Origin: Candidatus Magasanikbacteria bacterium RIFOXYC2_FULL_42_28
GTDB taxonomy: Bacteria > Patescibacteriota > Patescibacteriia > Magasanikbacterales > GWA2-37-8
Assembly (NCBI GenBank): GCA_001784435.1
Contig: MFQZ01000001.1
Span: 156,205 to 220,204 of the forward strand
DNA: 64,000 bases
Reading direction: 5' to 3'
Of this stretch, positions 3,551 to 61,800 are shown one piece after another. The notes under the pieces are model-generated. The model was not told the DNA's origin, searched no databases, and was given only the letters and a program-made list of their open reading frames with translations. Each line of letters starts with the position of its first letter. The first letter of the stretch is position 1. The translations under genes were made by a program, and so were the position numbers.

Positions 3551-3554
3551 AAAA

Positions 3555-8095: not shown

Positions 8096-8165
8096 TCCGA
8101 CGAAAGTCGGAATCTCTGTCGGTTGGTCAGTGGGCCAGAGATCCCGATTTTCATCGGGATGACAG
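8090..8165. repeat. family B structured element (tgtcattccgacGAAAgtcggaat...gatcccgattttcatcgggatgaca)
   Basis: Terminal inverted repeat TGTCATyCCGA / TCGGGATGACA with an internal GNRA hairpin; sits directly 5' of the Elp3 start. Confidence 0.6.
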
Positions 8166-8176
8166 TAAAAATTTGT

Positions 8177-9853
8177 ATGGCTAAAATTGAAGCGGAGATT
8201 ATCAAACAGGCAATTCTTTTGCCTAATCTAACTACCGACACGTTTTCTAACCTGAAACGTGATATTTTGCGTAAATTTAAAGCACCTACTAGCCCATCCA
8301 CAGCAGCGCTTCTGAAAGTTTACCACAAATTGACCCGTTTAGGCAAGATTAAGCGATCGGCAATTTTAGAAAAATTACTGGTGCGCCGAGGTGTGAGGAC
8401 TTTGTCGGGCGTGTCTATCGTCACTTCCCTCACTAAACCCTTCCCCTGCCCGGGCAAATGCACCTACTGCCCCAATGATGTCAAAATGCCCAAGAGTTAT
8501 ATTTCCGACGAACCGGCGGCCGCGCGCGCCTTAATGCTCCGCTTTGACCCGTATGACCAAATGGTGCGCCGATTGGAAGCCTTGGCCGATAATGGACACC
8601 CAACTGATAAAATTGAACTCATTATCAAAGGCGGAACTTGGAACTCATACCCGCTTGCTTATCAATATTGGTTTGTCGCCCGCAGTTTTGAAGGCGCCAA
8701 TGAATATTATAGTAAAAAATTAAAAAAGTTTAAAGTTCATAAAGCTGACAGTGAGAATGGTCTAACTGTAAAACAAATTTTAGACAAATTAGCCACTGCC
8801 CAAAAGAAAAATGAAAAAAGCCGTAATCGGATTATTGGCCTGACTTTGGAAACTAGGCCAGATCATGTTACCGAAGCGACAATAAATCAGATGCGTTTGC
8901 AAGGTGCGACGCGCATTGAGCTCGGCGTGCAAACCACCGATGATAAAATTCAAGAACGAACTAAACGCGGGCATAATGCCGAGCAGGCCAAAAACGCGAC
9001 TAAATTACTGCGCCACTATGGTTTTAAAGTGGATTTCCATTTGATGCCCCAACTGCCAGGCTCGACGCCAACGGGTGATTTAAAAATGTTAAAAGAAATT
9101 TTTGCTGACCCGGCATATCGCCCCGATATGGTTAAAATTTATCCCTGCACAGTCGTGGATAACACAGAATTATACGAAGAGGTAAAACGCGGGGAATTTA
9201 AACCCTACTCTGATAAAAAATTAATTGAAATTTTAAAAATTTTTAAAAGCGAAGTTGTCCCATACTATTGCCGGATCTCGCGCCTAATTCGCGATATCCC
9301 CTCTCAACACATTAAAGCCGGCAACACGATGACCAATTTGCGCCAAGTACTTCAAGCCGAATTAAAAGCCGAAGGCAAAAAATGTAAATGCCTACGCTGT
9401 CGCGAAATCGGCCACTCAACAAGTGGCGTGGCTGGTGTTTCCCCCCTCCTGCCCGAGGAGGGGGCGAGGGGGCGGTGGGAGCCAAAATTATTTATAGATA
9501 AATACGCGGCGAGTGGCGGACACGAATATTTTTTAAGTTGGGAAGATAAAAAACGCGAAGTCGTCTATGGCTTCTGTCGCTTACGTGTGGACAAAAACGG
9601 CATCTATCCTGCCTTTATTCGCGAATTGCATGTGTACGGCCAAATGGTAGAAGTAGGTGGACATGAAAAAAGCGCCAGCCAACATTTTGGCTTAGGAAAA
9701 AAATTAATGATTGCTGCGGAAAAAATCGCCAAAAAAGATAAGGCCGGCAAAATTGCGGTTATTGCCGGAATTGGTGTTCGGGAGTATTATAGGAAGACAG
9801 GATATGGGTTGGAGAGTACTTATATGGTTAAAACTCTAAATACTAAGTCCTAA
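8177..9853 (+). CDS. elp3: Elp3-type tRNA modification enzyme (radical SAM + GNAT acetyltransferase)
   Basis: Radical-SAM Cys cluster CPGKCTYCP; C-terminal GNAT Q/R-x-x-G-x-G/A-like segment HFGLGKKLMIAAEKIA. Start moved to MAKIEAEII; the upstream track residues are the family B repeat. Confidence 0.8.
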   Translation: MAKIEAEIIKQAILLPNLTTDTFSNLKRDILRKFKAPTSPSTAALLKVYHKLTRLGKIKRSAILEKLLVRRGVRTLSGVSIVTSLTKPFPCPGKCTYCPNDVKMPKSYISDEPAAARALMLRFDPYDQMVRRLEALADNGHPTDKIELIIKGGTWNSYPLAYQYWFVARSFEGANEYYSKKLKKFKVHKADSENGLTVKQILDKLATAQKKNEKSRNRIIGLTLETRPDHVTEATINQMRLQGATRIELGVQTTDDKIQERTKRGHNAEQAKNATKLLRHYGFKVDFHLMPQLPGSTPTGDLKMLKEIFADPAYRPDMVKIYPCTVVDNTELYEEVKRGEFKPYSDKKLIEILKIFKSEVVPYYCRISRLIRDIPSQHIKAGNTMTNLRQVLQAELKAEGKKCKCLRCREIGHSTSGVAGVSPLLPEEGARGRWEPKLFIDKYAASGGHEYFLSWEDKKREVVYGFCRLRVDKNGIYPAFIRELHVYGQMVEVGGHEKSASQHFGLGKKLMIAAEKIAKKDKAGKIAVIAGIGVREYYRKTGYGLESTYMVKTLNTKS

Positions 9854-9957
9854 ACCCTAAACAAATCCTAATGTTCAAAATCTAAACTATCAATTTTGAA
9901 CATTTGAATTTGAAATTTTGAACTTGTTTAGAATTTAGGGTTTAGTATTTAGAATTT
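9846..9957. repeat. family C palindromic element (arms tctaaa(c/t)tctaaa... / tagaatttagggtttagtatttagaat)
   Basis: cctaaaccctaaacaaatcctaatgttcaaaatctaaac...ttgtttagaatttagggtttagtatttagaattt. Confidence 0.6.
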
Positions 9958-9967
9958 AAATAAAAAT

Positions 9968-16476: not shown

Positions 16477-16504
16477 ATAAAAAATTATGCGCAACTTCGG
16501 CATT

Positions 16505-16612
16505 TTAATGTCAAATTTCCAATGTCAAATGTCAAATCAAATCCAAAACCAAAATATCAAATAACGATTGTGGTGAATTGGAAATTGGAAATTTGGATTT
16601 TGACATTATCAC
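16505..16612. repeat. family A palindromic element immediately after ftsZ stop
   Basis: atgtcaaatttccaatgtcaaatgtcaaatcaaatccaaaacc...ggaaattggaaatttggattttgacatt. Confidence 0.7.
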
Positions 16613-16613
16613 T

Positions 16614-21920: not shown

Positions 21921-22376
21921 TTAATTTCCTTTTTTTAGAGGATTGTAATTGCGCTTAACTTCATACCCGTCTTTATAACCATCGCCATCAGTATCGGCAT
22001 TAAGCGGATCGGTTTTCCATACTTCTATTTCAGTTTTGTCCAAAATGCCATCGCCATCAGTATCGGATTTTTTCGGGTCAGTGCCAGATTGTTTTTCTTG
22101 ATCAGCCGTAAGACCGTCTAAATCTTCGTCCGTAATACGAATGTTATCTAATGCTTTATTCAACGCTACCAACTCTTCTTTTCTTTTTTGTTCCGAAGCG
22201 GTTTGACTTAAAGCGCCACCGGTTAATTTTTTACGCAGTGCCAATACTCCAAACACTAATCCGACCACCAACAACAAAACCACAATAACCGCGATAATTA
22301 TATTTAAAATTTTACCAAAAGAACGCGGTGGCGTATTATTGGTTGATGGTATTAAAGTGTCATTCATATACTTCAA
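21921..22376 (-). CDS. thrombospondin type-3-like repeat protein, TM-anchored
   Basis: DTDGDGILDKTEIEVWKTDPLNADTDGDGYKDGYEVKRNYNPL. Confidence 0.55.
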   Translation of the reverse strand: MKYMNDTLIPSTNNTPPRSFGKILNIIIAVIVVLLLVVGLVFGVLALRKKLTGGALSQTASEQKRKEELVALNKALDNIRITDEDLDGLTADQEKQSGTDPKKSDTDGDGILDKTEIEVWKTDPLNADTDGDGYKDGYEVKRNYNPLKKGN

Positions 22377-31300: not shown

Positions 31301-34084
31301 AAATTCAAAATAATCATTATTTAAATCAATACTGGAAACATTACGGTTATTTGGTTTAACTTGCACGGAATATTTTTGATTGAGAGACAGACCGGAGGGA
31401 ATTTTTATCAATATTTTTTCATTAGTCCAAGTATCACCGCAATTATCACCAATATAAACCTGGCCATTTGCCACCACCGCGCCGTCGCCATCTTTTCTAA
31501 ACCAAACAACGCCCGGGCTTTCGCCAAAATTCCGACCGGTGATAAATACATATTCATTGGTAGCGCCTGCGCGCGGAGAAATGCCGGTAATTACCACATC
31601 GCTGTTTTCACTTTCTGGCACCTCGGAGCCGGATTTTACAGTGAAACGAATACTATTGCTCTCGGCATTGTCAAGATGGCGTTTTATTTTTACGCCAACC
31701 GCGCCACTGCCCAATTGTGGTACTACGGCCCATAAATTATCCGCAAACCAATTAGTGCCTGATTTCATCGCCGCCACTGTTTCGCCAAAATATATTTCAC
31801 CACCATTAACACCAAAATGATTACCCTCTAAATAAACATCACTTCCCGGAGTGGAACTGCTGGGAGCAATTCTACACAAACCCGGCCGTGAACTGGTATT
31901 AACAATAAAATCCAAATCCAATCCCCAATTGTCTTTAATTAAATCAAGATTATTATCGGTAATATCGGTTCTGCTACTACCGGCGCGACCGTCAACAGCC
32001 GCCTCTACTTTAATTGGGCCACTTTGCGCGTCTGTTGGGACTTGGGCAATGATTTGATTGTCCGTCCAAGTGCGTTTGGGATCGCAGGGTAATTGGGCTT
32101 CTTGCCAGACAATCGGTCCCCCACCAATTTTTTGCATGTTAAAATCATCCAAATAAACGGTGGCGGTGCGAACGGACGCGTATTGATCCAATCCCCACTT
32201 AAAATATAGTTTATTAGTATCATTTTGGCCATGATTTTTTAAAACGTATTCATACTTACGCCAACCACTACTCAAAGGAAAACCGAGCACGCAATCGCTG
32301 TTGCGACTGCCGACACATTCCCCAGTGTTCGCCACTCTTTGTTCGGTAAAATTATAAATTTTGCCACCGTCAAAAGAAATTGTTAAAAACAACTGTGCTC
32401 CAACCGTTGGACTGTACGCGTATACTGAACCAAGATAACTTTCACTTGATTTAATATTTTCAATTGGCGCGGACCACAAATACACCCAGCCATCTGAAAC
32501 GTTTTTATCAATTTTAATCATTTTTTCACCGGTATGAGCCAAGGACGAATTGAGATTTGTTCTGGTGGCTTTCCCAGCTGAAAAAGCTTGGCTGACTGAA
32601 AAACTATTATTTAAAGGACCATCCGCGTACAAACTGGGATTACCATTTATATTACTGACAAAATAAACCTTCCCCGGCTCGCTCCCAAAATATCGCCCAT
32701 TAATGGAAACATAATTCCCCGGCGCGCCGTTGTTAGGATCAAGTCCGCGAATTTCCAAACGTCTTTCGCACACACCGGAACCACTGACGGAAACAGCGCA
32801 AAAACCGGTACAGCAATCAGAATTTTTGGAACAACTATTGCCGGCGACGCACTGCGCTTCTTCCAAACGCAAATCTATCTGCCTACTCACTTCCGCGGTA
32901 AAAGCGGCCCAATCCGTGCCCAAAACACGCAAGTTATAATTGCCAACACGCCAGCCGGATGTCTTCCAAGTAAGGGTAAAAGAGTCCGTTTTTTTACACT
33001 CGGTAAAAGTTTCGTCGTCTTGCGAATACCGGCTATCGCCAACATATAACAACGCGTTTTGCAAACCAAAATCATCATTATAAGTTACGTTTACGGAAAC
33101 ATCCTCACCCCGAAACGCCGAATCCGGCGCGGATATGGTTATGGTTGGCGCTGTTCTATCCACACCCGAACCGGCGGTGAAATCCACCGGCCCACACCCC
33201 TCACCATCGCTACAACTTAAATTTTTGGCTTCATTTTGAGTCGGGTAACCGGCGCGCGTCTTGATACCGTCCGACCGACCACCCGGCAACATCAATTCAT
33301 ATTTACCACCGGCGTCAAAACAGTCGTCCGCCCCGGCATCGCCACAATCACCATTAGGCGTAAACTTAACGGCGGTATCGTTGGTGTCGGCAACATAACT
33401 CCAAACTCCCTCTACCTTTTCCGATGTTGAAACAACATATACAATCCTAAAGGAGCTATTATTTAAAGAATCCAAATTAGGCGGTTCGGAAAATACCACC
33501 ACCGGGTGATAGTTACGGATACAAACATCTCCATTTGGCGGTAATAGTTCAACTTGAAATTCCCGTTTAGGATCGCAACCGGCCGGATTGGGACAGCCAT
33601 TTGGGCCGTCTTCGCCACATTCGCCACCGCGGTCTACCGGACCTTCCCCTTCACGAAATTCACCCGATTCCGGTTCTCGCACGCCATTATAACAATGCGC
33701 TGGCAAAAATCCGGTCGCTCTTGCTAAACTTTTAATAACAAAACTGGTAATGGCAAAAGCGGACAAAATTATTACCAGACCAATTAAGGAATTTTTAATC
33801 AATGTTTTGGCTTCGGTAACTTTTTCTTCGTTCCCGCCGGCCGTCATCCAAATAAACCCGGCGTATAACATCAAACATAAAACTATTATCCCCAAAAACC
33901 CAAGCACGGCGCGAATAATTTTGGCAATCACCAATCGGATATCCGTGCTACCCAAACCAATGGTCTCCCCTATTTCGGCAATCCCCAAATCCTGCGCCCA
34001 CACAGTGGAAGCAAAAAATAAACCGCCAAACAAAAGCGTTAGGACAAATGATGCGATGAATAATTTTTTGGGATTCCTCGGCAT
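22373..34084 (-). CDS. giant (3903 aa) secreted/surface protein: VirB2/TrbC-pilin-like N-terminal module + Ig-like/LamG-like domains + many Cys-rich CGDG...EECD repeats
   Basis: Single uninterrupted ORF. N-terminus has a signal peptide and two hydrophobic helices joined by TAGGNEEKV. The CxxCGDGxxxxGEECD class (myxo-type disulfide repeat) occurs at least 10 times. A LamG/concanavalin-like segment lies near the middle. Confidence 0.85.
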   Translation of the reverse strand: MPRNPKKLFIASFVLTLLFGGLFFASTVWAQDLGIAEIGETIGLGSTDIRLVIAKIIRAVLGFLGIIVLCLMLYAGFIWMTAGGNEEKVTEAKTLIKNSLIGLVIILSAFAITSFVIKSLARATGFLPAHCYNGVREPESGEFREGEGPVDRGGECGEDGPNGCPNPAGCDPKREFQVELLPPNGDVCIRNYHPVVVFSEPPNLDSLNNSSFRIVYVVSTSEKVEGVWSYVADTNDTAVKFTPNGDCGDAGADDCFDAGGKYELMLPGGRSDGIKTRAGYPTQNEAKNLSCSDGEGCGPVDFTAGSGVDRTAPTITISAPDSAFRGEDVSVNVTYNDDFGLQNALLYVGDSRYSQDDETFTECKKTDSFTLTWKTSGWRVGNYNLRVLGTDWAAFTAEVSRQIDLRLEEAQCVAGNSCSKNSDCCTGFCAVSVSGSGVCERRLEIRGLDPNNGAPGNYVSINGRYFGSEPGKVYFVSNINGNPSLYADGPLNNSFSVSQAFSAGKATRTNLNSSLAHTGEKMIKIDKNVSDGWVYLWSAPIENIKSSESYLGSVYAYSPTVGAQLFLTISFDGGKIYNFTEQRVANTGECVGSRNSDCVLGFPLSSGWRKYEYVLKNHGQNDTNKLYFKWGLDQYASVRTATVYLDDFNMQKIGGGPIVWQEAQLPCDPKRTWTDNQIIAQVPTDAQSGPIKVEAAVDGRAGSSRTDITDNNLDLIKDNWGLDLDFIVNTSSRPGLCRIAPSSSTPGSDVYLEGNHFGVNGGEIYFGETVAAMKSGTNWFADNLWAVVPQLGSGAVGVKIKRHLDNAESNSIRFTVKSGSEVPESENSDVVITGISPRAGATNEYVFITGRNFGESPGVVWFRKDGDGAVVANGQVYIGDNCGDTWTNEKILIKIPSGLSLNQKYSVQVKPNNRNVSSIDLNNDYFEFVGGEPAPGICALSNYSGPIPYPDEDGLKIFGDHFLSDDDTVGISTTIFFSRNKVAEKLAITDNEIKVSPVEGTVSGAIEVRRASDNKVSNQVDFTVQNCLENTNACNKDTEQCCGRDTGQPGVCIAGNLRCKNDTLSTGYMWRFSTAGIPEPLRVVERCDASVMAGLALPSPSPSLLWRQGGGDPQENVCRGALISIEFSRADINLINTNVPGTDLNALVVLECTGGIDAVQQNCLTTGVAPTKVSVVNTGDSRGVLLPGVSSQSGANSQHAYLSLRPTSTYNHNTGHWIPNTWYQVKLYNNIRANGTGASSTPIIADRPCGDGTAYCFAFHTDPTGRQCELEKVIVTPYEYWTNHLEELLIGRTASGREYDLFYRGNGLSTDRCIMMDVSGYGWNWRSGNIAYSNIVGTTTMDKAQVSALQNTVGVNLTNPLNAVNIFADATTNTASVTKTKTGTSTLTIDLSDPKVVDYWPQCFEACPSAEIGVKFNISMSTANLDKENGAVRLDKCNDVNCFTTEPVTLADVKNQPDKSLIILTPETDLEQSKYYVVSISNEYPGELSSPATAPDVLWSLGNIFSPSSYSKPFNKNLTWKFRTKDQACLIDRVDVAPEVFSTRRITDKSFYFATPYSAPDACSAQGQRLNAYDVGWNWQSSDTDVATVTPFRTLGQNKNCTDRCVRKGSDVPFATTTSGAVDRFIACGNGTVEAGEDCDLPSATGGCTLTCLYSGNTNTTNTTSTVDIGLCGDSFVSSTKGEECDPGSADITKRVNCNAFNCLWTGSTAEPKANNVNASVCGDRKVTVGEECDVAIPPDDILMTTSSRNCSAQCLHTGTRMTNYWFQQPGNERPAGFATTTYDFYKNVSYSQCGDGVTSADEDPECEASFLDEDVYPKPCNKYCQMVDYKVSLYSTDGWDFATKPLYAGACVFGEEGCNISDYRPLGSSLSYSNPSVCGDGITGTGEVDYCESTTSTDFIKYSRAATTTGLYRFDPWVLAKGVGMGATGTNAVGAGVAQVALISATTNQNTAGGSGTAKTDSGRFEIKCGYQNDDECVSVAGLPNDNTYGVGNNSCCYARPQKTANYPLDDADDVCLNTSISASFDHPIDKNSITGNFLIARQLLATSTCYTGGEDVTELVVAFENQQLSWPKRLLKRALAWFNNLFGRQTASADVWCVGGDTGAVEVNNEFDPDTKLFSTSTLKVNLNRPLSADADYTIILKNGLKDTRGVSIGAVIRWSFETGNEICEVENISLSPTEVYFARANATTTMHVTARTDASRGNQIIAPIANFYAWDYIWGPAPSVSNPFVEFAPATTSASVANGDNILKALNKNGEIDVYATANVVANQYTARRGPVATGQAHAIVFLCENPWPPKDLPSNGARIFPYEDKLNNDDGFNLATDAFDGSSIDPSTVEETNTSGYYNFRTYYCADSGVSGRGDDLPYLRAAVQTSTAQLEVAKGACSFTGEECDLGVAADEQCNAKFTVTTTRSVFYSKYSTKICRVAKAPAYDSAALYYLDKNNSPLSCTNQDSCDDDDGFKVWKDTIPSDYDSTICSNLIYPSLNFEDPVCIAQPQLLKRFIFTDTNSRGVSDAVGISVFSNQYFLSPRDWLAGNKQSGGKDFNVNNFRDLKVGGYDAVSDGNNVYVEALNYSAGGSANLKSNIYLFSLNKNSGATMKNVFEQFMNNLTLNTNLTNTNYCVDSLEVDPPVLSPDSVPCRTDIDCASAGHSEQKCANQIDKLKRNYNRLRGLGAIEKSLANYADANAGKYPPLPQGTYLSGQTVSTWPSWSVLGTATGRSLPTDPINRLAPAGSCAYTADNIAKFCHVDTDCDSTITDNKCLLHDATTNWLTTGTSTADRRFSFACDPTSLAYRYIVSTSSPNYMVRYLLEPKEYSLSYAFNALIPKFIVTTSRFVSDPTGICLASEEISTMQSGFCGDGKLNLNLGEDCDPPQALEYGNVCTGGTRTLKTCSANCKWEETEGGVDCLDRTKCGNGKLDLGESCDDGVLNGRYGKCNNTCEATSTLYCGNGALDEPYEFCDTVSSKCAYATGAGVSTPSPYACSVYAMSNSYSCKSDCSGFGSYCGDGVIDASQGEECDGEPVCSVGGSSGVRNCLSCRKVSALAEWGMDNLAGLSPGSRPASGGAIRYVYPFSGDKFNLHKIFSVINVSSTATGDFPQYPQVVSDGKIGGAFKNSYNKRLFLYTSSTLPNYSGFEITGTSSISLWINPDDHPWDSVNVHRFNTIIEKGGMDTNNCGFTLRRDISNNDLLFYAMGAISSTYSARCSVADNYERQPGGGARFAGSPDPLTISGAAPPNTWTHLVVVNNSASARVYVNGVLKITTSKPLNNLTDCGNYSFGADNWYGSAINYVNIVGGYTHSDHTHPYSGSTASGSGCLTSSGAIEGDWMIPKQDWYFYYGKMDELKYFDRALSTPEVKDLFDSYRDLGGWMCTASTTPNSGPVAPTGCGNGHVESETEACDNSQVNAVTGALIYNNNGQTCRPGYNRPCTYCSADCRNVIRKEASGWCGDGVINTSSPERCENVGINTYSSVTGTNIYGTITDDVNGYHVYRCDQLVAPLNVSTSYWANLIYQTNLEQYTPRQIGDRKCNSSCSEIQDNCVACGKDNTNGVAVSGNIINVIEPSSIDPIYDYLYAGTSHSGLLELFYSKPTVNYSQSSTISLAQMLRVGIDSPTASSYALREGGNGIGSVKVNSDLRCSIKDDNLAAYYLTVNGYRAFVTNTPNAPIRRKFFPVRADSTPADFDLLLSPRINASSTQQKGHIRVVLSWVGDASKQLSAGFVTAINGGNTVVAKEGTDFNSAIGRSYFTETGSNFLKQGIWYHGITTTASGLNMESFTINTNAMGANPFIFYVRTDDDSAINYYRNNGGVKVEVYEPDFDTNIDYASDSRFSFPVRTFELKDARQLSALDLDYDPAIDDNPNASAWHVFNIKSLYPNPVASAEVSLEENLNYIRSSRNYLRFSY

Positions 34085-39057: not shown

Positions 39058-40657
<1,600 letters not shown>

Positions 40658-41164
40658 AAAAAAAGTTCAATTAAGAACTATCAGAGAAGAGTGAAAAAAA
40701 TTCACTCTGCTAGATTTGAATCTCTTTTGACTGCTAAAGCCAAAAAGAGTTCTGGATTTATTCTGTATGTACGTCTTTCATTGTTTGTACTCAACAAACA
40801 ACTAAGACAATGTTTAGAGAAATAGATTTTGTGATTTTTGTCACGATTTGTATTGTCAACGAACACTGCTTCGCTACGCTACGCAGTGCAAGCATCTACT
40901 TGGACACGTTGCGCAGTGTAAACTTTCTTTCTTTTTACAGAAAGAAAAAAGAGGAACCAAAAATTTCAGTTACTCTTTTTTCTTTCCAGTATCCTATCTA
41001 CCTAACATTCCAAACAACAGCTTTTGGACTTAGAAGAAATCAATTGTTATAAAGTACTTGGTTGCCTTGATTTGTATTAAGCAAACGCAGTTTAACATAT
41101 TGTCAGAAACCTGTCAAGGGGTGGTTTGGGGTAAGGTGGGGATAAAAAAACCTTGATGTGTAGA

Positions 41165-41234: not shown

Positions 41235-41528
41235 ATGGTCGCAGTCAGTATTACGATCATTGTCAACGACAAATGGAAATGGGAAGTTCGCAAACTGTTT
41301 GCGAAGAAAGGCGCAAACGGAGCAGGTGGGCACACGAGTGTCACCCGCAACGACAAACGAGAATTTGAAGTTCGTGTCGTAGGGGCGTACGATCAATCGC
41401 TGGGCACTTGCCCGGTGACCGAAACAACGGCCCCAACCCTCGCTCTGGCCCTGCGCCAGGTTCCACCTGATTTCCGGCGGGAAATAAAATCCCATCTGGC
41501 GCGCGTTCGTTGCGCCATGAAGAAGTGA
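41235..41528 (+). CDS. hypothetical 97-aa protein in GC-rich island 2
   Basis: ATG with a good RBS, own promoter, terminator hairpin at 41641-41672; the 3' two-thirds of the ORF and the downstream 100 bp are strongly GC-rich. Confidence 0.4.
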   Translation: MVAVSITIIVNDKWKWEVRKLFAKKGANGAGGHTSVTRNDKREFEVRVVGAYDQSLGTCPVTETTAPTLALALRQVPPDFRREIKSHLARVRCAMKK

Positions 41529-41640
41529 CCACCCGTCCCGCCCCCACCGCCCTCGAGCAACCCGCCCACCTCCGCCCCGGGTCTGCTCACAATGTTCAGA
41601 AATATTTTTGTGAATATTGTGAGACCCAGGTGCGAGTATT

Positions 41641-41677: not shown

Positions 41678-42373
41678 TCATTTTTTTCGCCACTCCGCTA
41701 TTTTTTTATGGTCGCCAGACAGCAGCACTTTTGGTACTTTTAATCCTAAAAAATTATCCGGGCGAGTATAAAGAATTTCAGATTTTTGAAATTTTGATTT
41801 TGGATTTGATTTGACATTGGAAATTGGAAATTTGTCATTAAACGTCTCATTACTTAACGACTCCTGATTCCCCAACACCCCCGGTATTAATCGGGAAGTC
41901 GCCTCCACCACTGCCAACGCTGGCAATTCCCCACCTGATAAAACATAATCCCCGACTGAAACTTTTTCATCTACAAATTTATACACACGCTCGTCAAATC
42001 CTTGGTAGCGCCCGGAAATTAAAATTAGACGGTCTAGTTTAGAAAATTTCTTGGCCATGGTTTGGTCGAATTTTTTTCCTGCAGGATCTAGTGCGATAAT
42101 TTTCAATTTACAATTTTCAATTTTCAATTTCTTGCCACCACGCGCTAACCCCAAACTCTCCAAACAATAATAAATTGGATCCACTTTCAAAACCATTCCT
42201 GCTCCCCCGCCATATTGCGTGTCATCCACCGGCTGGTGTTTTCCAACCGCAAACTCGCGCCAATTATGAGCGATGATTTTTATTAAATTTTTCTTTTGGG
42301 CGATGCCTAAGATACTATCATTGGAGTAGTGATAGATTAGGTCGGGGAAAATTGTAAGGATATCAAATTGCAT
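41678..42373 (-). CDS. trmD: tRNA (guanine37-N1)-methyltransferase
   Basis: ...LISGRYQGFDERV..., SVGDYVLSGGELPALAVVEA. Start moved to MQFDILTIFP; MEIGYLDFEI in the track is repeat A. Confidence 0.9.
   Translation of the reverse strand: MQFDILTIFPDLIYHYSNDSILGIAQKKNLIKIIAHNWREFAVGKHQPVDDTQYGGGAGMVLKVDPIYYCLESLGLARGGKKLKIENCKLKIIALDPAGKKFDQTMAKKFSKLDRLILISGRYQGFDERVYKFVDEKVSVGDYVLSGGELPALAVVEATSRLIPGVLGNQESLSNETFNDKFPISNVKSNPKSKFQKSEILYTRPDNFLGLKVPKVLLSGDHKKIAEWRKK
41778..41840. repeat. family A element (partial) downstream of trmD
   Basis: tttgaaattttgattttggatttgatttgacattggaaattggaaatttgtcatt. Confidence 0.55.
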
Positions 42374-42394
42374 AATCGCACGAACAAAATTTTT

Positions 42395-42512
42395 AATTTC
42401 AAAATCCAAATATCCAATTTCCAATCAAATCCAAATTTCAGATGTTAAATGTCAAATTTGATATTTTTATTTTGACATTGATTTGACATTGGAAATTGGA
42501 AATTTGACATTA
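42395..42512. repeat. family A element abutting trmD start
   Basis: aatccaaatatccaatttccaatcaaatccaaatttcag...ttttgacattgatttgacattggaaattggaaatttgacatt. Confidence 0.7.
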
Positions 42513-42588
42513 CCAAATATTAATACAAAACCACTCCGCAATAATATATCACGGAGTGGTTTAAATGTCTAATCAGAATATCTGATTA

Positions 42589-43906: not shown

Positions 43907-44047
43907 TGTCATTCCCTACTAGATCCCGGCTTTCGCTGGGACGAATCCAGTCGCAATTTGTCATTTTGATTTTGAAATTTGAATTTGATTTGAAATTGGA
44001 AATTTGACATTCGTAAAGGGATTCCTCCACTGCGGTCGGAATGACAA
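43907..44047. repeat. family B element carrying a nested family A element (43958-44015)
   Basis: tttgtcattccctactagatcccggctttcgctgggacgaatccagtcgcaa[tttgtcattttgattttgaaatttgaatttgatttgaaattggaaatttgacatt]cgtaaagggattcctccactgcggtcggaatgacaaa. Confidence 0.6.
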
Positions 44048-44051
44048 AAAC

Positions 44052-47000
44052 TTAGGCCGGCACCCTCACATCCTCCAACTTCACACTCAACAACTTTGAC
44101 ACACCTTCGCCACCCATAGTAACACCGTACAAAACATCCGCGCCGTGCATCGTAACACGATTATGCGTAATCACGATAAATTGTGATTGGCGCGAAAGTT
44201 CGCTCATGATATTGGCAAAGCGCAAAGTGTTGGCTTCGTCTAACGCGGCTTCTACTTCGTCCATTACAACGAACGGCGCTGGGTTGCAGGACAAAATCGC
44301 ACAGACGAGCGCGATCGATGTAAGTGTGCGTTCACCGCCGGATAACGCGCTTAGATTTTTTATTTTTTTACCGGGTGGGCAGGCGGTAATATCAATCCCA
44401 GTTAACGTAGTAATTTTTTTACGTTTAGATTCGTCAGCCAAACCGTCCGCTCCCACCCCCTCTGCTTCTCCCCCTCGGGCAGGGGGAGACATGCCAATGC
44501 CCGCCACCGCACCCTCCAACTCTGCGTCCTCATCAAGCACCTCACCATAAATTTCTTCCAAAGCCGCGCTCCCACCATTAAATAAAATTTTGAAATAACG
44601 ATCAAATTCTTTGCGAATTTTTTTGAAAGATGCTTCGCGTTTCTTCTTCATTACTTCAGTTAATTCTTCAATCATTTTTTCTAAATCTGCTGTTGCTTTA
44701 TCTAAATCTGATAATTGCGCGGACAAGAAATCAAATTTTTCTTTGGTCGTAGCGTGTTCTTCAACCACACCTTCTTCAATACCACCAATTAAACTTAATT
44801 GATATTTTAATTTCTGAATTTCATCGGCGGTCACGGCCAACCCAGCACTATCCAACGCCTCAACAATCCGCTCCGACAAAGTCGCAGGTGAAGCGGAAAT
44901 TTCATTGCCCGCCTCGGCCATTAAGTCCTCGCGCTTGGTTTCTAATTTCGCCAATTGAATTTTCAAATCATTGCGCGAATTGATAATTGTGTTCACCGCT
45001 ACCTGCGCTTTCTGCATTTCATCTTGCAGATGAAACACGCGTTGTTTTTTCTCTTCTTCTTTATTATTAAAATCTTGAATTTCGCGGGAGGCACTCACAA
45101 CTAATTTTTCCGCGTCCGCAATATTTTTTTCAATCAAACTTTTTTCTTTACCCAAACCACCCAAATATTTACTATGCTCTTCCGGACTCATCTGGATAAA
45201 ATTTCTTTCTTTTTCCAAATCTGTTAATTCCAATAATTTCTGACGCACTTGCGTGCCCACAACCGCACTTTCAGCTTTGTATTTTTCCATTTCCGCGCGG
45301 CTAAACAAAATTTCACCGCGTTTTTCTTCTAACCGTTTTTCCACAATTCGCAAATCTTCGCGTAATCTTTCAACAACTTTTTGCGGATCATCACCACCCG
45401 CTTCCGGCGCTAACCATTTACCCGAAAATCCCGGGCCCCGACGATTACCTTTGCGATAACCACCACGCATCACGCCTTTACGCTCAATCACATCGCCGTC
45501 CAAAGTAACCATCCGAAATCGCCCAATTCCAATTCTCTGCGCTGTTTCCAAATTTTCTACCAACAAATTATCTCCCAAAACAAAGGAAAAAATTTCACGA
45601 AAACGATTATCGAATTTAATTAAATCAATTGCCCAACCGATTACACCCGCCTGCCCCAAAACATCATCTGTTTCTTGCCCCAACTCGCGCCCGCGGATTT
45701 TATTCATTGGCAAAAATGTCGCCACACCCATTCGCTCAGCGCGCAAAAATTGAATTGCGTTTTTTGCAGTCTCATCATCGCCTACAACAAGCGAAGACAA
45801 ATGTGAACCAGCTGCGACTTCCAAAGCCAAACGATATTCTTCATTCACCTCGCCCAATTCCGACAACATTCCATATACCTTGCCCAATCGCGAGCGATTA
45901 TCCAACACTGCCTTCACCGCCGACAACCCGCTCATTTCAAAATATTGACGTTCGGATTGCGCTTGATAGGTTTGGTGTTCAGCTTGTGATAATTTGACCG
46001 TTAATTCCGTGCGTTCAATTGATAAATTCTCTACTTCCCGATCTTTTTCCGCGATTATTCCATTCAATCGCGTCAACGCTAAATCCGCTTGCGCCTGACC
46101 AGTCTCCAAAACCGAACTTTCATTTTTTAAATCTAAAATCTTTTTTTCCAACCAGCCCAAATTTTGTTTACCGGCATCTGAATACGCGGTCTGTAATTTC
46201 CCAGACAAAATCGCCAACGATCTTTCAAAATCATTTTTTACTGCCATCGCTTGCTGATGTTTTTGTTGTAATTCCGCAAACACTTCCGCGCGCGTTGCCA
46301 ATTGCGCTATCTGCGATAACTCATTTTGAATATTCGTTAAATTTTCAAACGCGGTGCGATATTCTTTTTCAATTTTATTTAATTGCGTGTCCAATAAATC
46401 TGTTTCTTTTTTATTGATCAAATACAACGATCCATAATATTTTTCTTGACACTCACGCAAAGCCAATTCCACTTCCTGACGTTTTTCTAATTTTTTAACT
46501 TGACGCGATAATAATTTTAAACGCGGTTCAATTTCGGCGAGTAGTCGTGTCGCCTGTTCAGAATTTTCACGCGTGCGCGCCAATTTCAAAGACGCTTGGT
46601 GTTCTTTAATTTGAAATTCTTTAATTCCCGATGCTTCGTCTAAAAAATCTTTACGTTCGGATGGTGTCACCACCAAAAGCCGATCAATCGTGCCCTGCGA
46701 AATAATACTATATGAATGTTGCCCAAATTGGGCGCGCGCCAAAAGCAAATGAATGTCAAGCAAACGCACCGGACTATTATTTATCAAATATTCACCTTCG
46801 CCCGAGCGATACAACCGACGCGTGATAACAATCTCCGGATAATCAATGCCAAACCCACTGCCGGTATTATCCAAAACCATCGTCACCGAACATGCCGACA
46901 ACGCCCCTTTGTCAACCGAGCCATTAAAAATTACATCTTCACTTTTTTTCCCGCGCAATTGTTTCAGCGAGGTCTCACCCATCACCCACCGAATCGCGTC

Positions 47001-47141
47001 CACAACATTGGACTTGCCCGAACCATTCGGCCCCACGACCGCGGTAATACTAAAACGACCGTCCTTGGGCGGTATAAATTCCAAAATGGTCTGACGGGCA
47101 AATGATTTAAAGCCGTCAATTTCTAAGCGTTTGAGATACAT
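44052..47141 (-). CDS. smc: chromosome segregation protein SMC
   Basis: Walker A GPNGSGKSN, long coiled coils, hinge, C-terminal LSGGE signature and Walker B VMDEVEAALD. Contains a GC-rich in-frame insertion at about 44447-44530. Confidence 0.9.
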   Translation of the reverse strand: MYLKRLEIDGFKSFARQTILEFIPPKDGRFSITAVVGPNGSGKSNVVDAIRWVMGETSLKQLRGKKSEDVIFNGSVDKGALSACSVTMVLDNTGSGFGIDYPEIVITRRLYRSGEGEYLINNSPVRLLDIHLLLARAQFGQHSYSIISQGTIDRLLVVTPSERKDFLDEASGIKEFQIKEHQASLKLARTRENSEQATRLLAEIEPRLKLLSRQVKKLEKRQEVELALRECQEKYYGSLYLINKKETDLLDTQLNKIEKEYRTAFENLTNIQNELSQIAQLATRAEVFAELQQKHQQAMAVKNDFERSLAILSGKLQTAYSDAGKQNLGWLEKKILDLKNESSVLETGQAQADLALTRLNGIIAEKDREVENLSIERTELTVKLSQAEHQTYQAQSERQYFEMSGLSAVKAVLDNRSRLGKVYGMLSELGEVNEEYRLALEVAAGSHLSSLVVGDDETAKNAIQFLRAERMGVATFLPMNKIRGRELGQETDDVLGQAGVIGWAIDLIKFDNRFREIFSFVLGDNLLVENLETAQRIGIGRFRMVTLDGDVIERKGVMRGGYRKGNRRGPGFSGKWLAPEAGGDDPQKVVERLREDLRIVEKRLEEKRGEILFSRAEMEKYKAESAVVGTQVRQKLLELTDLEKERNFIQMSPEEHSKYLGGLGKEKSLIEKNIADAEKLVVSASREIQDFNNKEEEKKQRVFHLQDEMQKAQVAVNTIINSRNDLKIQLAKLETKREDLMAEAGNEISASPATLSERIVEALDSAGLAVTADEIQKLKYQLSLIGGIEEGVVEEHATTKEKFDFLSAQLSDLDKATADLEKMIEELTEVMKKKREASFKKIRKEFDRYFKILFNGGSAALEEIYGEVLDEDAELEGAVAGIGMSPPARGGEAEGVGADGLADESKRKKITTLTGIDITACPPGKKIKNLSALSGGERTLTSIALVCAILSCNPAPFVVMDEVEAALDEANTLRFANIMSELSRQSQFIVITHNRVTMHGADVLYGVTMGGEGVSKLLSVKLEDVRVPA

Positions 47142-48606: not shown

Positions 48607-49191
48607 TTACTCGCGACAGGCGAACCGAGCGCCGCCGCGCCAGTCGCAGCCGAGCCAGCTGAAACGGAGCACCCAGCGGTCGCCGTGCCAGCGGAGGCAG
48701 GCCACGCGCCGGAGGCCGTCGGAATCGCACAGAACCGTGCCAGCGAGGGGGATGTAGAATCCCCGGAACTCGGCCGACAACTTGTCCTGCTCGGCCAGGA
48801 TCCGCTGGCCGTCGGCGAGGCCGAGATTGGCCCCCATGCTCACCGCGCGGCGACGCATCTCGTCGCCGGCGATGCCCGACTCCCCAGCCTTGAGGAAGGC
48901 GCGGGGACGGAGCGACGCCACGTCGAACTGCGACGCGACGACGTCCTCCACCACCGTCCAGTCGGTGGGGACGAGGCCGGTGGCGAGGGCCGGAGACTTC
49001 ACGCCGACGACCAGCGTCTTGACGCCGGCCCAGAACTCCTTGGAAGTAAGGACGTTCTGCACGTCCTCAATGTTGAACTCGAGCGACTTGAACAAGCCGC
49101 CCATCAACTTCGCAAATTCGCGAAGCTGGCCAGACGTGAACCGTTTCGCGGCCATCGTCTTGCTCCTTGCCATGCAGTTTGCCTTTGCCAA
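48607..49191 (-). CDS. hypothetical protein in GC-rich island 3 (Cys/Trp-rich C-terminus)
   Basis: Own promoter on the minus strand, TTGACA-18-TTATAT (plus about 49230-49259). Strongly GC-rich; the plus-strand ORF 48586..49251 is the alternative frame. Confidence 0.4.
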   Translation of the reverse strand: MAKANCMARSKTMAAKRFTSGQLREFAKLMGGLFKSLEFNIEDVQNVLTSKEFWAGVKTLVVGVKSPALATGLVPTDWTVVEDVVASQFDVASLRPRAFLKAGESGIAGDEMRRRAVSMGANLGLADGQRILAEQDKLSAEFRGFYIPLAGTVLCDSDGLRRVACLRWHGDRWVLRFSWLGCDWRGGARFACRE

Positions 49192-51799: not shown

Positions 51800-51823
51800 A
51801 TAGTTGATAAAATATACTTAATA

Positions 51824-51935
51824 AATGTCAAAATCCAAATTTCCAATTTCCAATCAAATCCTAATATCAAATGTCAAAATTTGAACTTTGGACTTTGAAA
51901 TTGATTTGACATTGGAAATTTGACATTTGAAATTA
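51824..51935. repeat. family A element abutting clpP start
   Basis: atgtcaaaatccaaatttccaatttccaatcaaatcc...ttgatttgacattggaaatttgacatttgaaatt. Confidence 0.7.
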
Positions 51936-51940
51936 ACATT

Positions 51941-52525
51941 ATGAACTCCCAAATCCTCATCCCCACCGTCATCGAAAAATCCTCTATGGGCGAACGCGCC
52001 TATGACATTTATTCGCGTCTACTTTTGGATCGCATAATTTTCTTAGGCCAAGCCATTGACGACCATGTCGCCAACATCGTCATCGCCCAACTATTATTTT
52101 TAGAAAACCAATCGCCGGAAAAAGATATTAAATTATATATCAATTCCCCGGGCGGATCCGTTACGGCCGGCCTCGCGATTTACGACACCATGCAATATAT
52201 CAAACCAGATGTGTCTACCATTTGCGTGGGTATGGCGGCGTCAATGGGCGCGGTCTTACTTGCCGCCGGCGCCAAAGGCAAACGATTGGCTCTCCCCAAT
52301 TCCGAAATTATGATTCACCAAGTAATGGGCGGAATGGAAGGCCAGGCCTCGGACATCAAAATCCACGCCGAAAGAATTTTAAAAACCAAAGACAGTTTAA
52401 ATAAAATTTTAGTCAAACACACGGGCAAAGACTTGGCGACAGTGGAAAATGACACCGACCGTGATCACTTTTTGAGCGCTTTGGAAGCAAAAAATTACGG
52501 TTTAATTGATAAGGTGATTGAATAA
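51941..52525 (+). CDS. clpP: ATP-dependent Clp protease proteolytic subunit
   Basis: [11 protein letters not shown] active-site Ser, MIHQ His. Start moved to [12 protein letters not shown]; the upstream track residues translate repeat A. Confidence 0.9.
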
Positions 52526-52756: not shown

Positions 52757-52880
52757 GCATAGCAATCATTCCGACTAAGTTGGGATGATTTTTATTTTCG
52801 CTTATTTTAGCCAAAAAAAGGCAATTATCCACCTTGTCAAGGGTGCAGGTCTTGACAAAACCTTAAAAATGTGCTATACT

Positions 52881-53180
52881 ATGTAGTTGCTGATAACAGT
52901 GCCGTATTTGAATAAACGGAAGAACTGATAGCAAGAAGTATCCCATTAAATAACATTAACGGCAAGAACTGGATATAGGCGTTTATTCTTTTGAAAAAGA
53001 GCTTAAACGCCCGTATCCACGACAAGCATGGGGATGTGTTGGCGGATAGTACAGGCGCAAGCTCGTCTTCTCCATTAACACATCTTCTTGGATGCGGACT
53101 ATTCCCACTGACTTTGTCGGCGGGAGCAAAAAAAACACCACGAACCCAATCAGGTTCGTGGTTTTATATTATTTTTTTAA
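52881..53180 (+). ncRNA. candidate about 300-nt structured non-coding RNA of unknown class
   Basis: TTGACA-17-TATACT promoter at 52847-52875; intrinsic terminator ccacgaacccaatcaggttcgtgg plus a T-run at about 53140-53180; extensive internal complementarity; no credible ORF. Confidence 0.4.
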
Positions 53181-53300
53181 ACACTAAATACTAAACCCTA
53201 AATTCTAAACAAATTCAAAATCCAAATGTCCAAAAGTAATTGATTTGAATTTTTAAAATTTGAATTTGTTTAGAATTTAGTATTTAGAGTTTAGAATTTT
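53181..53300. repeat. family C palindromic element
   Basis: aaacactaaatactaaaccctaaattctaaac...gtttagaatttagtatttagagtttagaatttt. Confidence 0.6.
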
Positions 53301-55258
53301 TACTCTACGGCCGGCTCCGTGCTCAAAACAGTAGCCGGCGAACTACCACCACTAACTCCAATTGTTGTGCTACTTGTCGCCCCCACCAAACATATCTGAG
53401 GTAAAGCTCGATAAAAACTTTCAAACACGCGATCAATTTTTTCGCCTGCCGGGGTAATGCGACTATATTCAAAACTCGCGACCGCGCCTTTATACGCGCC
53501 TTGGCAGGTCTCCACGCCCGGTTTTAAATTTTCCGTATAAGTGATTTGTTTTGCTCCCGGCGAAATCCATTTGCTTACGATTGGATGCGTGTACCAACCT
53601 TTGCGTCCGTCTAATTTTCCCCATAACGTAAAAACCAATTCCATTTTTTTATAATCCGCTTCCGCTTGTAAAAGCAAATATCCACCCGTATCATTTAAAA
53701 ATTTCAAATCCAAAGACGGCTCATACAAAGTGGCGTCTGTTCCCGGATTGCCATTGACCGGATCGGCGTAATAACTGACGACCAAAGAATGATTGCGCCG
53801 TTGGGTGATATCCATTCCCGAATTCATCGCCATCCGAAACATCGTCGTGCCGATTTGACACATCCCCCCACCCACCTCCGCTTTTATTTCATTGCCTTTG
53901 ATAACCAATTCCGGCAGGTAGCCATTTTCTTCAGTATAAGGACTGGAATATTTATTGGTAGAAAAATCTTCACCCGGTTTTATCAAAATCCCATTTAATA
54001 ATTTGACGGCATTGGCAATATTTTTAATCCGATTGGTATGACTGCCGACAAACGATGACACGCCCACGCCAATCACCCCTTCAATTCCCAAATCATTTAA
54101 GCTGGCCATCTGCACTTTTGGTTCCGCCACGGCAACGGTTAGGCCCACGGTTTTACTCAAACTGGCCGGATGATAATTACGCTCCTCAAACGCCTTGGCC
54201 AAATCCGTATAAGTTTTTTCTAAATCAATTCGCAATCCGACCGCGCTGGCCTGGAATTCTTTTACTTTATCATTTTCCATCACAAACTTGGCATCACGCG
54301 CCGGCACGTCCACGTCTTGGCGCTGTTGTTCCAAATATTCACCCATTTTTCCGCTATCCAAAGAAAAAATAATCACACCACTCGCGTCTTTTTTCAAGCG
54401 CAACCATTCCCCCATTTGCGTGGCAGTAATTACCCACTCTCGGCGCGCTTTGGTCTGCGGGGCAATATAATTTAACGATAGATTACCGTAATTCAAAATT
54501 TCCGAAACGCGGGGCGCGACCGCTTGCGCGTCTTTTAAAGTAATTGCCGGGTCAAAATATTTCGCTTCCAATTTAATCGTGTTAAAACGCAATTGTCCTA
54601 AATCAGTTTTTATTTGGTTGATTATCACCGGAATATCAAAATTTTGTCCGGCCATTTCCGGAATTATTTCCATCTGTCCCGTCGGCCAATCGTGAAACAC
54701 CACACCGGCATCGCGCGGATCATCGGATAATTTTTTTAAATTGTCGCGCAAAATTTCCGTAGCGGACAAATCATTGATAACCACGGGCGCGACCAATACC
54801 ACTTTTTTAAAACGTAAAAATAACGGGTAAAATAATTTTTCATACCACGCCCCGGCGCGACCGACACCCAAAGATAAATCAACCAAACTGTCGCCGTCAA
54901 ACGCCAATATTTCCGCGACCGTATCGCTGTCTGAAACCGTGTTGATTTTAAAAGACATATCGGCGCGCGCGGTGTGAGCGTCAAACGCCACCCCCTCTTT
55001 GGCCAAGCGATCATTCAAATCTTCAATAAATTTTTTAACTTCCGCACCGGTGCTTCCACCCAAATGGTACGATCCGACCGAAACCCCCGGATAAACTTCG
55101 TCTTGATAAATTGAGACATACGCGGCGCTCGCGCCAAACACAACAGCAATAAACACCGCGACAATTAACAAAAAAACACCGGCGAATTTAAAAATTCTCC
55201 GACCACGCGTGGGTGGTGTTGATAACAAAGGAGTTAAATTTTCTAGAATATCTGACAT
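53300..55258 (-). CDS. VanW-family protein with N-terminal TM anchor
   Basis: C-terminal VanW core GGGMCQIGTTMFRMAMNSGMDITQRRNHS. Confidence 0.7.
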   Translation of the reverse strand: MSDILENLTPLLSTPPTRGRRIFKFAGVFLLIVAVFIAVVFGASAAYVSIYQDEVYPGVSVGSYHLGGSTGAEVKKFIEDLNDRLAKEGVAFDAHTARADMSFKINTVSDSDTVAEILAFDGDSLVDLSLGVGRAGAWYEKLFYPLFLRFKKVVLVAPVVINDLSATEILRDNLKKLSDDPRDAGVVFHDWPTGQMEIIPEMAGQNFDIPVIINQIKTDLGQLRFNTIKLEAKYFDPAITLKDAQAVAPRVSEILNYGNLSLNYIAPQTKARREWVITATQMGEWLRLKKDASGVIIFSLDSGKMGEYLEQQRQDVDVPARDAKFVMENDKVKEFQASAVGLRIDLEKTYTDLAKAFEERNYHPASLSKTVGLTVAVAEPKVQMASLNDLGIEGVIGVGVSSFVGSHTNRIKNIANAVKLLNGILIKPGEDFSTNKYSSPYTEENGYLPELVIKGNEIKAEVGGGMCQIGTTMFRMAMNSGMDITQRRNHSLVVSYYADPVNGNPGTDATLYEPSLDLKFLNDTGGYLLLQAEADYKKMELVFTLWGKLDGRKGWYTHPIVSKWISPGAKQITYTENLKPGVETCQGAYKGAVASFEYSRITPAGEKIDRVFESFYRALPQICLVGATSSTTIGVSGGSSPATVLSTEPAVE

Positions 55259-57738: not shown

Positions 57739-57829
57739 CTATATATTAAAAATCCGTCCCGACTTAACCGGGACGGATTTTTGTTTCATCATTTTTGCCT
57801 TGTCCTGCGTAGCCAAAGGCGAAGCGGGA

Positions 57830-60773: not shown

Positions 60774-60813
60774 ATATTTATTGCTTATGCGTTCTTAAAC
60801 TATTGAGTCGTCG

Positions 60814-60897
60814 TGCGCGGGAGAGGACTCGAACCTCCATGCCCTTGCGAGCGTTACCACCTCAAGGTAGTGCGTCTACCAGTTTCGCCACCCGCGC
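60814..60897 (-). tRNA. tRNA-Leu (anticodon GAG), long variable arm
   Basis: Reverse complement gcgcgggtggcgaaactggtagacgcactaccttgaggtggtaacgctcgcaagggcatggaggttcgagtcctctcccgcgca; 7-bp acceptor stem, 3-bp D stem. Confidence 0.8.
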
Positions 60898-61699: not shown

Positions 61700-61727
61700 T
61701 CAAACCAGACAACGCCATTTGTCATCC

Positions 61728-61800
61728 TGAGAGAGCAACGCGACCGAAGGATCCCTTGGAGATTGTGTTAAGGGATTCTTCGTCTTACTCAGAATGACAA
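61728..61800. repeat. family B element
   Basis: tgtcatcctgagagagcaacgcgaccgaaggatcccttggagattgtgttaagggattcttcgtcttactcagaatgaca. Confidence 0.55.

Follow-up and report, generated by a model that had tools for sequence, protein, structure and literature searches.

Why should the smc gene of a Patescibacteria genome carry, in its own reading frame, a short segment far richer in G+C than the gene around it, and why should that segment resemble one in an Elp3-type gene elsewhere on the same stretch of DNA? Both genes lie in a 64,000-nt stretch of Candidatus Magasanikbacteria bacterium RIFOXYC2_FULL_42_28 (contig MFQZ01000001.1, positions 156,205 to 220,204; hereafter the window). The original prediction, made from the letters alone, had described the smc segment as an in-frame mini-insert of about 85 nt, the same as that in Elp3. 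We find that it harbors a 45-nt member of a dispersed family of GC-rich hairpins, which recurs in unrelated genes of several Patescibacteria lineages, and we put at roughly three in four the probability that it is a non-autonomous, selfish interspersed repeat translated as a loop peptide.

The host gene (44052..47141, minus strand) encodes 1029 aa according to the open reading frame (ORF) list, with Pfam matches to SMC_N (2.7e-66) and SMC_hinge (1e-30), and its product features both SMC_N head halves, the hinge, the Walker A and B motifs and the LSGGE signature expected of an SMC protein. Its head aligns to the solved Bacillus subtilis Smc heads (3zgx and 5xg3), and its best homologs (120 orthologs) are all Patescibacteria, several of them named Candidatus Magasanikbacteria at source. 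On the minus strand, 44447-44530 reads ...GIGMSPPARGGEAEGVGADGLADESKRKK in frame with smc, letter for letter as first reported, and the stretch lies ahead of the LSGGE and Walker B motifs as had been proposed: flanked by EEIYGE (residues 862-867) and LTGIDI (913), 35 residues upstream of LSGGE (933), with the Walker B motif VVMDE (958) further on. The compositional contrast is equally real, with a GC fraction of 0.70 as compared to 0.43 in the rest of smc and an 80-nt maximum of 0.71, three standard deviations above the window mean (0.443, standard deviation 0.09). GC richness alone is unexceptional, however, because 42 stretches of the window exceed 0.62, and the insert size of about 85 nt has to be revised: the repeat proper covers 45 nt (44449-44493), and the GC-rich bases upstream of it (about 44494-44551) are the lineage's own variable loop.

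The smc copy, which defines subtype A of the family, reads CATG TCTCCCCC TGCCCGA GGGGGAGA AGCAGA GGGGGTGGGAGC on the minus strand (44449..44493). Its 5' arm (44482..44489) and 3' arm (44467..44474) form a perfect inverted repeat and a predicted stem around the loop TGCCCGA (44475..44481), followed by the spacer AGCAGA and a G-rich tail (together 44449..44466) whose GGTGGGAG is conserved across the family. The copy is recovered both by exact pattern match and by a profile search (nhmmer E 2e-13), and its translation is M884-SPPARGGEAEGVG-A898 (15 aa). The companion, of subtype B, lies on the plus strand (9438..9482) within an Elp3-type radical-SAM/acetyltransferase gene (8123..9853, plus strand), which features Pfam Radical_SAM and Radical_SAM_C domains, has orthologs named Elp3 at source and encodes a protein that aligns to the solved Elp3 structures 6ia8 and 5l7j. 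This copy consists of TTT, a CCCCCTCC-type 5' arm, the loop TGCCCGA, the arm GGAGGGGG, the spacer CGA and the tail GGGGGCGGTGGGAGC (hairpin at 9442-9464; nhmmer E 1e-10).

The two copies are thus built alike and read differently. The GC patch of Elp3 contains TTTCCCCCCTCCTGCCCGAGGAGGGGGCGAGGGGGCGGTGGGAGC and the SMC coding strand TGTCTCCCCCTGCCCGAGGGGGAGAAGCAGAGGGGGTGGGAGC; in both, a G/C stem of 8 bp surrounds the same loop and the end GGTGGGAGC follows at equal distance downstream, and 29/38 nt of an ungapped core are identical by hand count (in-window blastn E 4e-4). The stems themselves differ, TCTCCCCC/GGGGGAGA in smc versus CCCCCTCC/GGAGGGGG in Elp3, and both pair perfectly. In smc the codons over the identical core are cct gcc cga ggg, in Elp3 ctg ccc gag gag, such that the element peptides, SPPARGGEAEGVGA and, in another register, SPLLPEEGARGRWE, are unrelated (a peptide spanning the element junctions would be ...GIGMSPPARGGEAEGVGADGL...). 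These different codon registers therefore identify a shared DNA element and exclude a shared protein motif. The notion of one and the same insert in both genes accordingly holds for membership in a single DNA repeat family, as judged by core, loop and tail, and not for subtype, register or peptide.

A 31-nt degenerate pattern derived from both copies, CCTGSCCGAGGRGGRGNNGNNGNGGSGGWGG, matches the window exactly twice, at 44453-44483 (minus strand) and 9448-9478 (plus strand), and is absent from 100 dinucleotide-preserving shuffles even with 2 mismatches allowed. Perfect G/C-rich hairpins number 7 in the 64 kb, two of them being the smc and Elp3 sites, both with the loop TGCCCGA. The elements reach a GC fraction of 0.71-0.78 in host genes of 0.43-0.44, and neither the subtype A nor the subtype B copy of the window has a stop codon in any of its six frames. 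An apparent third copy, a blastn match at 21529-21568, was rejected as the Pro-rich linker of a membrane protein, and the profile search yields the two copies only.

Beyond the window, family members follow one plan of about 42-45 nt, in which a G/C stem of 8 bp closes the loop TGSCCGA and is followed, after a spacer of 3-6 nt, by the G-rich tail ending GGTGGGAG. The loop of nearly all members is identical to that of the two window copies, with the variant TGGCCGA in one SMC lineage, and almost no stop codon occurs in any of the six frames across the family. When scanned with the 31-nt pattern, JGI metagenomes yielded 18 loci and GTDB representative genomes 13. Three of these (L006, L011 and L025) were discarded, as they represent a single chance hit to Bathyarchaeia DNA (GC 0.64). 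In all other loci the element boundaries are sharp and shared, as the flanks are unrelated until (A/T)T(T/G) followed by TCYCCCC, and again past GGGAG. Both subtypes, that of smc (A) and that of Elp3 (B), are encountered repeatedly. When 23 distinct copies were turned into a profile and searched over 344 kb of window and retrieved-locus DNA, about 31 distinct sites emerged, most of them deep inside long ORFs, in sense or antisense. Taxa bearing the element include Magasanikbacteria (RIFOXYD2_FULL_41_14), Uhrbacteria, Doudnabacteria and metagenome-assembled genomes (MAGs) labelled Saccharibacteria, the first being an 81%-identical relative of the window genome with about 10 copies when contigs of its sample are included.

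Host genes outside the window, named from conserved motifs in the translations and not on a Pfam basis, are functionally diverse. Sense copies are found in PheT (SPLLPEEGARGRWEK), at two different positions of isoleucyl-tRNA synthetase (IleRS) in two lineages (MSPPARGGDAEGVGA; KSPPARGGDEGGVEG), in Fpg (FSPPARGGEAEGVGA), in a UvrD-like helicase with two copies (ISPPARGGDEEGVGA; ISPPARGGDEGAVRA) and in an EpmA-like protein (SRLLPEEGARGRWEQ), and antisense copies in cysteinyl-tRNA synthetase (CysRS; FSHPLLASPSGRGRK), PEP synthase (PpsA; DSHRPLAPSSGRRGN) and a LeuRS-like protein (LPPPLHLPLGQGEKK). The relative's other host genes (CysRS, PheT, Fpg and PpsA) do not fall within the window. Intergenic copies are few, an example being a pair in inverted orientation that lies, with other small repeats, downstream of recA (L023); further inverted copies occur in L041, and head-to-head copies form inverted doublets in the SMC loop of L003 and L004. 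The loop of the element in L013 (8137-8202) encloses a further small hairpin (CCGCC...GGCGG), yet this copy still lies within an open frame of 320 aa.

Viral relatives of the family were also seen. In IMG/VR, neither the strict 31-nt pattern nor the subtype A hairpin gave a match, whereas the subtype B hairpin retrieved two contigs with a longer, two-hairpin relative (L040, 822-878 and 7205-7259; L041, 18-131). Its first hairpin, CCCCTCC TGCCCGA GGAGGGG, matches that of the element and is followed by a second, small self-complementary variable hairpin and then by GGGGTGGTGGGAG, and it is placed at gene boundaries in a contig of GC 0.69 and as an inverted doublet in a contig of GC 0.46. Such a two-hairpin form in phage contigs may be an ancestor or a vehicle of the element. 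Concatenated element peptides searched against a database of 5.8 billion proteins gave 93 word-sharing candidates, none of which scored, the query being too short and of low complexity. Full-text literature searches found neither a description of the element in the candidate phyla radiation (CPR) nor its sequence strings, although in a limited library this does not establish the family as undescribed; in-frame palindromic repeats of this kind are known elsewhere.

Within SMC the element occupies a site that tolerates variation. It falls into a hypervariable head-domain loop (44406..44540, minus strand; residues 868-912) between strands E858-866 and E912-921, which is 45 aa in the window protein and 22-59 aa (median 35) and mostly acidic between EEIYGE and LTGID in the 119 orthologs aligned. 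When the solved B. subtilis heads are aligned on both sides, only about 10 residues stand where the window SMC has 52. In the AlphaFold2 model (mean pLDDT 76.5), residues 870-909, between two head strands and enclosing the element peptide 884-898, drop below 50 and constitute the longest low-confidence stretch, for which disorder is predicted. The longest loops among the orthologs are largely those of repeat carriers.

Carriers are patchily distributed. The SMC ortholog P0002, 81% identical overall, has the same insert with an identical 43 nt at the same place, and orthologs of that clade at or below 64% identity have a gap there; the alignment against orthologs that had been proposed as a check thus supports insertion, and the segment is far from universal. 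As loop length varies in every CPR SMC ortholog, such a gap is by itself weak evidence, and the real proof is provided by the dispersed copies in unrelated genes. For Elp3, only the 86%-identical P0122 among 120 orthologs shares the copy, and the loop after CLRCREIGH is 24 aa here versus a median of 13 aa, and 9 residues longer than in the solved M. infernus Elp3. In a distance tree of SMC, carriers fall into two separate clades whose common ancestor spans 83 tips, 6 of them carriers. In P0089, P0058 and L010, a distant clade at 54-57% identity to the SMC of the window, a sense copy follows a partial antisense one, another distant ortholog (P0032; locus L038) has an antisense element in the same loop, P0077 has related hairpins with the same tail, and P0012 and P0020 have a different repeat family, read VIPAEAGIQ...GDD. 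Repeats have colonised this one SMC loop more than once.

The hairpin is maintained by compensatory changes. When 18 distinct copies are aligned without gaps, standard pairs make up 98.6% of the cells in the 8-bp stem, and 3/8 stem pairs show double substitutions (U-A to C-G or the reverse, 16 cells), a level of covariation that 0/500 shuffles reach and that is worse in every slid register. These changes come in several combinations (L008, L029, L032 and subtype B), and therefore reflect more than one inherited event. The energy of single-sequence folding is no better than that of shuffles, as expected for sequences of C-runs and G-runs, and we therefore rely on covariation. No Rfam family reaches its gathering score in the window, and only sub-threshold chance matches were obtained in L003, L007 and L027.

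These data support a model where copies scatter through Patescibacteria genomes in either orientation and would survive where harm is small: in intergenic spacers and, most visibly, in length-tolerant surface loops of essential proteins. As the element is G/C-rich and nearly stop-free, an in-frame insertion of multiple-of-three length would add only a short peptide (14-15 residues) in which Gly, Pro, Arg and Glu are abundant. The SMC insertion would have occurred in the common ancestor of the window genome and Ca. Magasanikbacteria RIFOXYD2_FULL_41_14, and the copy is probably translated, rather than removed, as residues 884-898 in the presumably disordered loop of the C-terminal head half; the element itself is likewise probably selfish rather than useful. 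Its movement is a matter of speculation. A conserved, covarying hairpin with occasional inverted doublets is what an HUH/Y1 enzyme would need, and we therefore favor recognition of a single-stranded DNA hairpin in trans by such an enzyme (RAYT or an IS200/IS605-type transposase) over copying between sites by recombination.

Several observations weigh against this interpretation. Pfam families of the transposase type are absent among the 40 window ORFs scanned and from the Pfam lists of the relatives' fetched genes, and no pair of empty and filled sites was found at nucleotide resolution. Copy number is low, with 2 in 64 kb and about 10 in contigs of the relative's sample. Between the window and the relative (L001), the element is identical at 43/43 nt in smc and 43/44 nt in Elp3, where the whole genes are 77% and 81% identical, and 15/15 third positions are unchanged as compared to 58% gene-wide; this conservation is weakly informative and we give it little weight, because the flanking head-domain DNA is itself 87-96% identical. 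There are also near-identical copies across CPR classes, such as TTTCTCCCCCTGCCCGAGGGGGAGATGAAGAGGGGGTGGGAGA in Doudnabacteria and in Saccharibacteria-labelled MAGs, and a bias in codon phase: 15/15 sense intragenic copies (44449-44493 and 9438-9482 in the window; L003, L004, L009, L012, L015, L019, L020, L029-L032 and L036) share the 5' phase xTT|TCY although other frames are open, such that subtype A is always read SPPxRGG and subtype B always LLPEEGARGRWE, whereas antisense copies use all three frames. Neither the near-identity nor the phase bias is predicted by purely random selfish insertion, and selection or a specific target may lie behind them. A bolder proposal, which we consider doubtful, is that of a still-active, horizontally spreading mobile element of about 45 nt that remains almost unchanged in several Patescibacteria classes and enters genes in a fixed codon phase; if true, it would imply phase-aware target choice or a host-selected function, with a hairpin used by an HUH-type enzyme or a recombination or expression signal as candidates.

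The same near-identity and phase bias, together with conservation between species, lead us to keep as the main rival a selected DNA or RNA hairpin signal, bound by a cell factor or tuning expression, for instance through ribosome pausing at the stem or at GGAGG-like arms. Stem covariation around an invariant loop would suit such a signal, as would the fact that few stretches of smc and Elp3 are as well conserved between the two species as the element and, in the viral contig L040, a related copy whose GGAGGGG arm lies directly upstream of an ATG. We nevertheless regard it as unlikely: copies inside and between genes, in both orientations relative to transcription, fit no single RNA role, their density is low, the Rfam and folding-energy results above lend it no help, and covariation is equally expected for a hairpin recognised in transposition. 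If selection acted instead on the peptide, the Gly/Pro/Arg/Glu module (SPPARGGEAEGVGA in SMC) would have been added for interaction or modification, and the uniform reading of sense copies, SPPxRGG... in 12/12 of subtype A and (S)xLLPEEGARGRWE in 3/3 of subtype B, is what such a function would leave. This is improbable in view of the three further frames in which antisense copies of the same DNA are translated (SPTPSSSPPRAGGE, LPPPLHLPLGQGEK and SHPLLASPSGRGR), the unrelated peptides of the two subtypes, the existence of intergenic copies, the lack of any functional relation among host proteins and the predicted disorder of the SMC segment.

The remaining explanations dispense with insertion, with translation or with the element altogether. 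That a GC-rich low-complexity loop evolved in place, its likeness to Elp3 being compositional convergence, would agree with the hypervariable loop being often Gly/Glu/Pro-rich in many orthologs and with GC-rich patches being common in the window, and is in practice already refuted by a 31-nt pattern of zero expectation in shuffles, by differing reading registers and by identical copy boundaries in >20 unrelated genes of several taxa, so that we assign it very little probability. Equally remote is an untranslated segment, whether lost from the mRNA by excision or skipped over by the ribosome. The bypassing of GC clusters in Magnusiomyces mitochondria offers a precedent (PMC8811140) and the hairpin is stable, but every intragenic copy keeps the frame and is free of stops, which makes removal needless; copies sit in tolerant loops as predicted for translated inserts, and neither matched take-off and landing codons nor an adjacent stop is seen in the sequence. 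An assembly or sequencing artefact, finally, has nothing in its favor beyond one copy at a contig end (L023), and can be set aside almost entirely, as independent assemblies (JGI Ga0208246 and Ga0156808, NCBI MFRE01 and an ENA assembly) agree on the insert and its site.

The hairpin family is not the only repeat of its neighborhood. Other small families are translated in CPR housekeeping proteins, often in the same loops: GTCATTCCCGCGGAAGCGGGAATC..., read VIPAEAGIQ...GDD, and the peptides LSFLRKQESSGRLSWIPAFAGMTT, HPERSEGS, CHPRENGDP and ...SASGGLRMTN, from L039 (the SMC of P0012), L009 (Fpg), L015 and L020 (IleRS), as well as from the Elp3 proteins P0211, P0215, P0152, P0224 and P0240. Colonisation by in-frame micro-repeats looks general in the phylum. 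An AT-rich palindromic family (TTTGACATTGGAAATTGGAAATTTGACATT and its complement) occupies many intergenic spacers of the window, including that directly downstream of the smc stop, with copies at 2524-2662, 3550-3688, 16504-16624, 41785-41856, 42383-42528, 43948-44012 and 51819-51965. The 16S rRNA gene (39059-40663, minus strand), 1605 nt long as compared to the 1533-nt Rfam model, features an AT-rich palindromic insert of about 80 nt at 39433-39517 (..AAATTCTAAATCCGAAACACTAAATCCTAAATCGCCAATTGGCATTTAGAGTTTAGAACTTAGATTTTAGAG..), whose family also forms long hairpins at 9828-9964, just past the Elp3 stop, and at 53172-53306; a palindromic repeat of a second, AT-rich kind has thus made its way into a structural RNA gene. 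An 82-nt repeat with long terminal inverted arms (TTTGTCATTCTGAGGAAGCG...CTCAGGATGACA) recurs at 15836-15917 and 61718-61799 with 82% identity, its first copy inside a 153-aa ORF (15506-15967) for which no Pfam match was found, and the terminator-like hairpin AAAAACCATCCCGACTAAGTCGGGATGGTTT has four copies of 77-100% identity (3709-3739, 6045-6075, 52761-52791 and 57749-57779).

Further features of the window stand apart from the repeats. A 570-nt island of GC 0.72-0.78 in this 44% GC genome (48495-49068; ORF 48607-49191, minus strand), free of Pfam and Rfam matches, lies between an NYN-domain gene with 99% amino acid identity to L001 and a Bro-N gene with 93%, the adjacent smc being at about 80%; the relative holds three membrane-protein genes at this position, and the island looks like a recently exchanged or foreign segment. 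Two other GC-rich islands (3781-4224, up to 0.75, and 41369-41613, up to 0.74) contain overlapping ORFs with implausible translations; neither Pfam nor Rfam has a match for them, and they resemble neither one another nor the loci of the relatives. At 60813-60897, ARAGORN calls a tRNA with an undetermined, two-base anticodon (tg), which the Rfam tRNA model scores at 47 bits over 84 nt and which may have a long arm or contain an intron. Finally, a single ORF of 3903 aa (22373-34084, minus strand), with a protein of 731 aa (domains Big_5 and T4SS-pilin) following it and a TSP3-repeat protein before it, probably marks a giant surface protein locus.

Recognition of the hairpin family accounts for a class of unusual GC-rich segments that lie in frame, and for the peculiar Gly/Pro/Arg/Glu peptides of CPR proteins; in annotation and structure prediction, these should be treated as repeat insertions rather than lineage-specific functional motifs. 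The family suggests that the ultra-reduced genomes of host-dependent Patescibacteria still carry selfish or mobile micro-repeats, in parallel with Rickettsia and mitochondria, whose reduced genomes are the other classic ones to have palindromic elements within genes. Insertion sites serve as natural markers of permissive loops in essential proteins such as SMC, Elp3 and aminoacyl-tRNA synthetases, near-identity between classes could be used to trace the horizontal flow of DNA among CPR bacteria, and stem covariation provides a concrete substrate for seeking a mobilising enzyme.

How, then, does the element compare with known repeat systems? Inteins and mini-inteins were considered and rejected, as an insert of 15 aa compares with at least about 130 aa with splicing blocks, and the junctions show no Cys, Ser or Thr/Asn pattern. 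REP and REPIN sequences, which are mobilised by RAYT, are likewise G/C-rich imperfect palindromes (20-40 nt) with stems kept by compensatory change and with inverted doublets. They are, however, extragenic by definition and start with a 5' GTAG-type tetranucleotide, whereas the majority of our sites are intragenic, with few intergenic ones (L023), and the 18 aligned copies lack GTAG and start (A/T)T(T/G) followed by TCYCCCC; the 40 window ORFs scanned and the Pfam annotations of the fetched loci include no RAYT (Y1/HUH) gene. RU-1/2/3, ERIC and MITEs are also small and non-autonomous, can carry open frames and can fuse in frame with host genes (PMC2759123, PMC10969869). They measure 100-170 bp and feature terminal inverted repeats and target duplications, neither of which is demonstrable here: the only inverted repeat is the internal hairpin, and no duplication is visible at the junctions, as seen from filled sites.

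Closer parallels are found in Rickettsia and in mitochondria. Like our element, RPEs are palindromic interspersed repeats that occur repeatedly in frame in unrelated housekeeping genes, add a short peptide at fold-compatible positions and are also found outside genes, with a mobilising enzyme known for neither (PMC10969869); the hairpin and the placement of most of the approximately 31 sites within ORFs agree with this description. RPEs are about 100-150 bp long and restricted to Rickettsia, whereas the CPR element is a G/C-rich single hairpin with a G-rich tail, 42-45 nt long and present in several Patescibacteria classes in both orientations, a separation based on size and taxon. The GC clusters of yeast mitochondria are short GC-rich palindromes in an AT-richer genome, mostly intergenic or tolerated in frame (var1) and regarded as mobile (PMC8811140), and our element, at a GC fraction of 0.71-0.78 in genes of 0.43-0.44 and in frame, shares this behavior as a functional resemblance only. 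The clusters are organellar and eukaryotic, their terminal AG/TAG repeats, read as target duplications, are unseen here, and no sequence is common to both. Overall, our comparison suggests that the hairpin repeat of smc and Elp3 works like an RPE or a mitochondrial GC cluster while being a member of neither, set apart from RPEs by size and taxon and from GC clusters by taxon and sequence.

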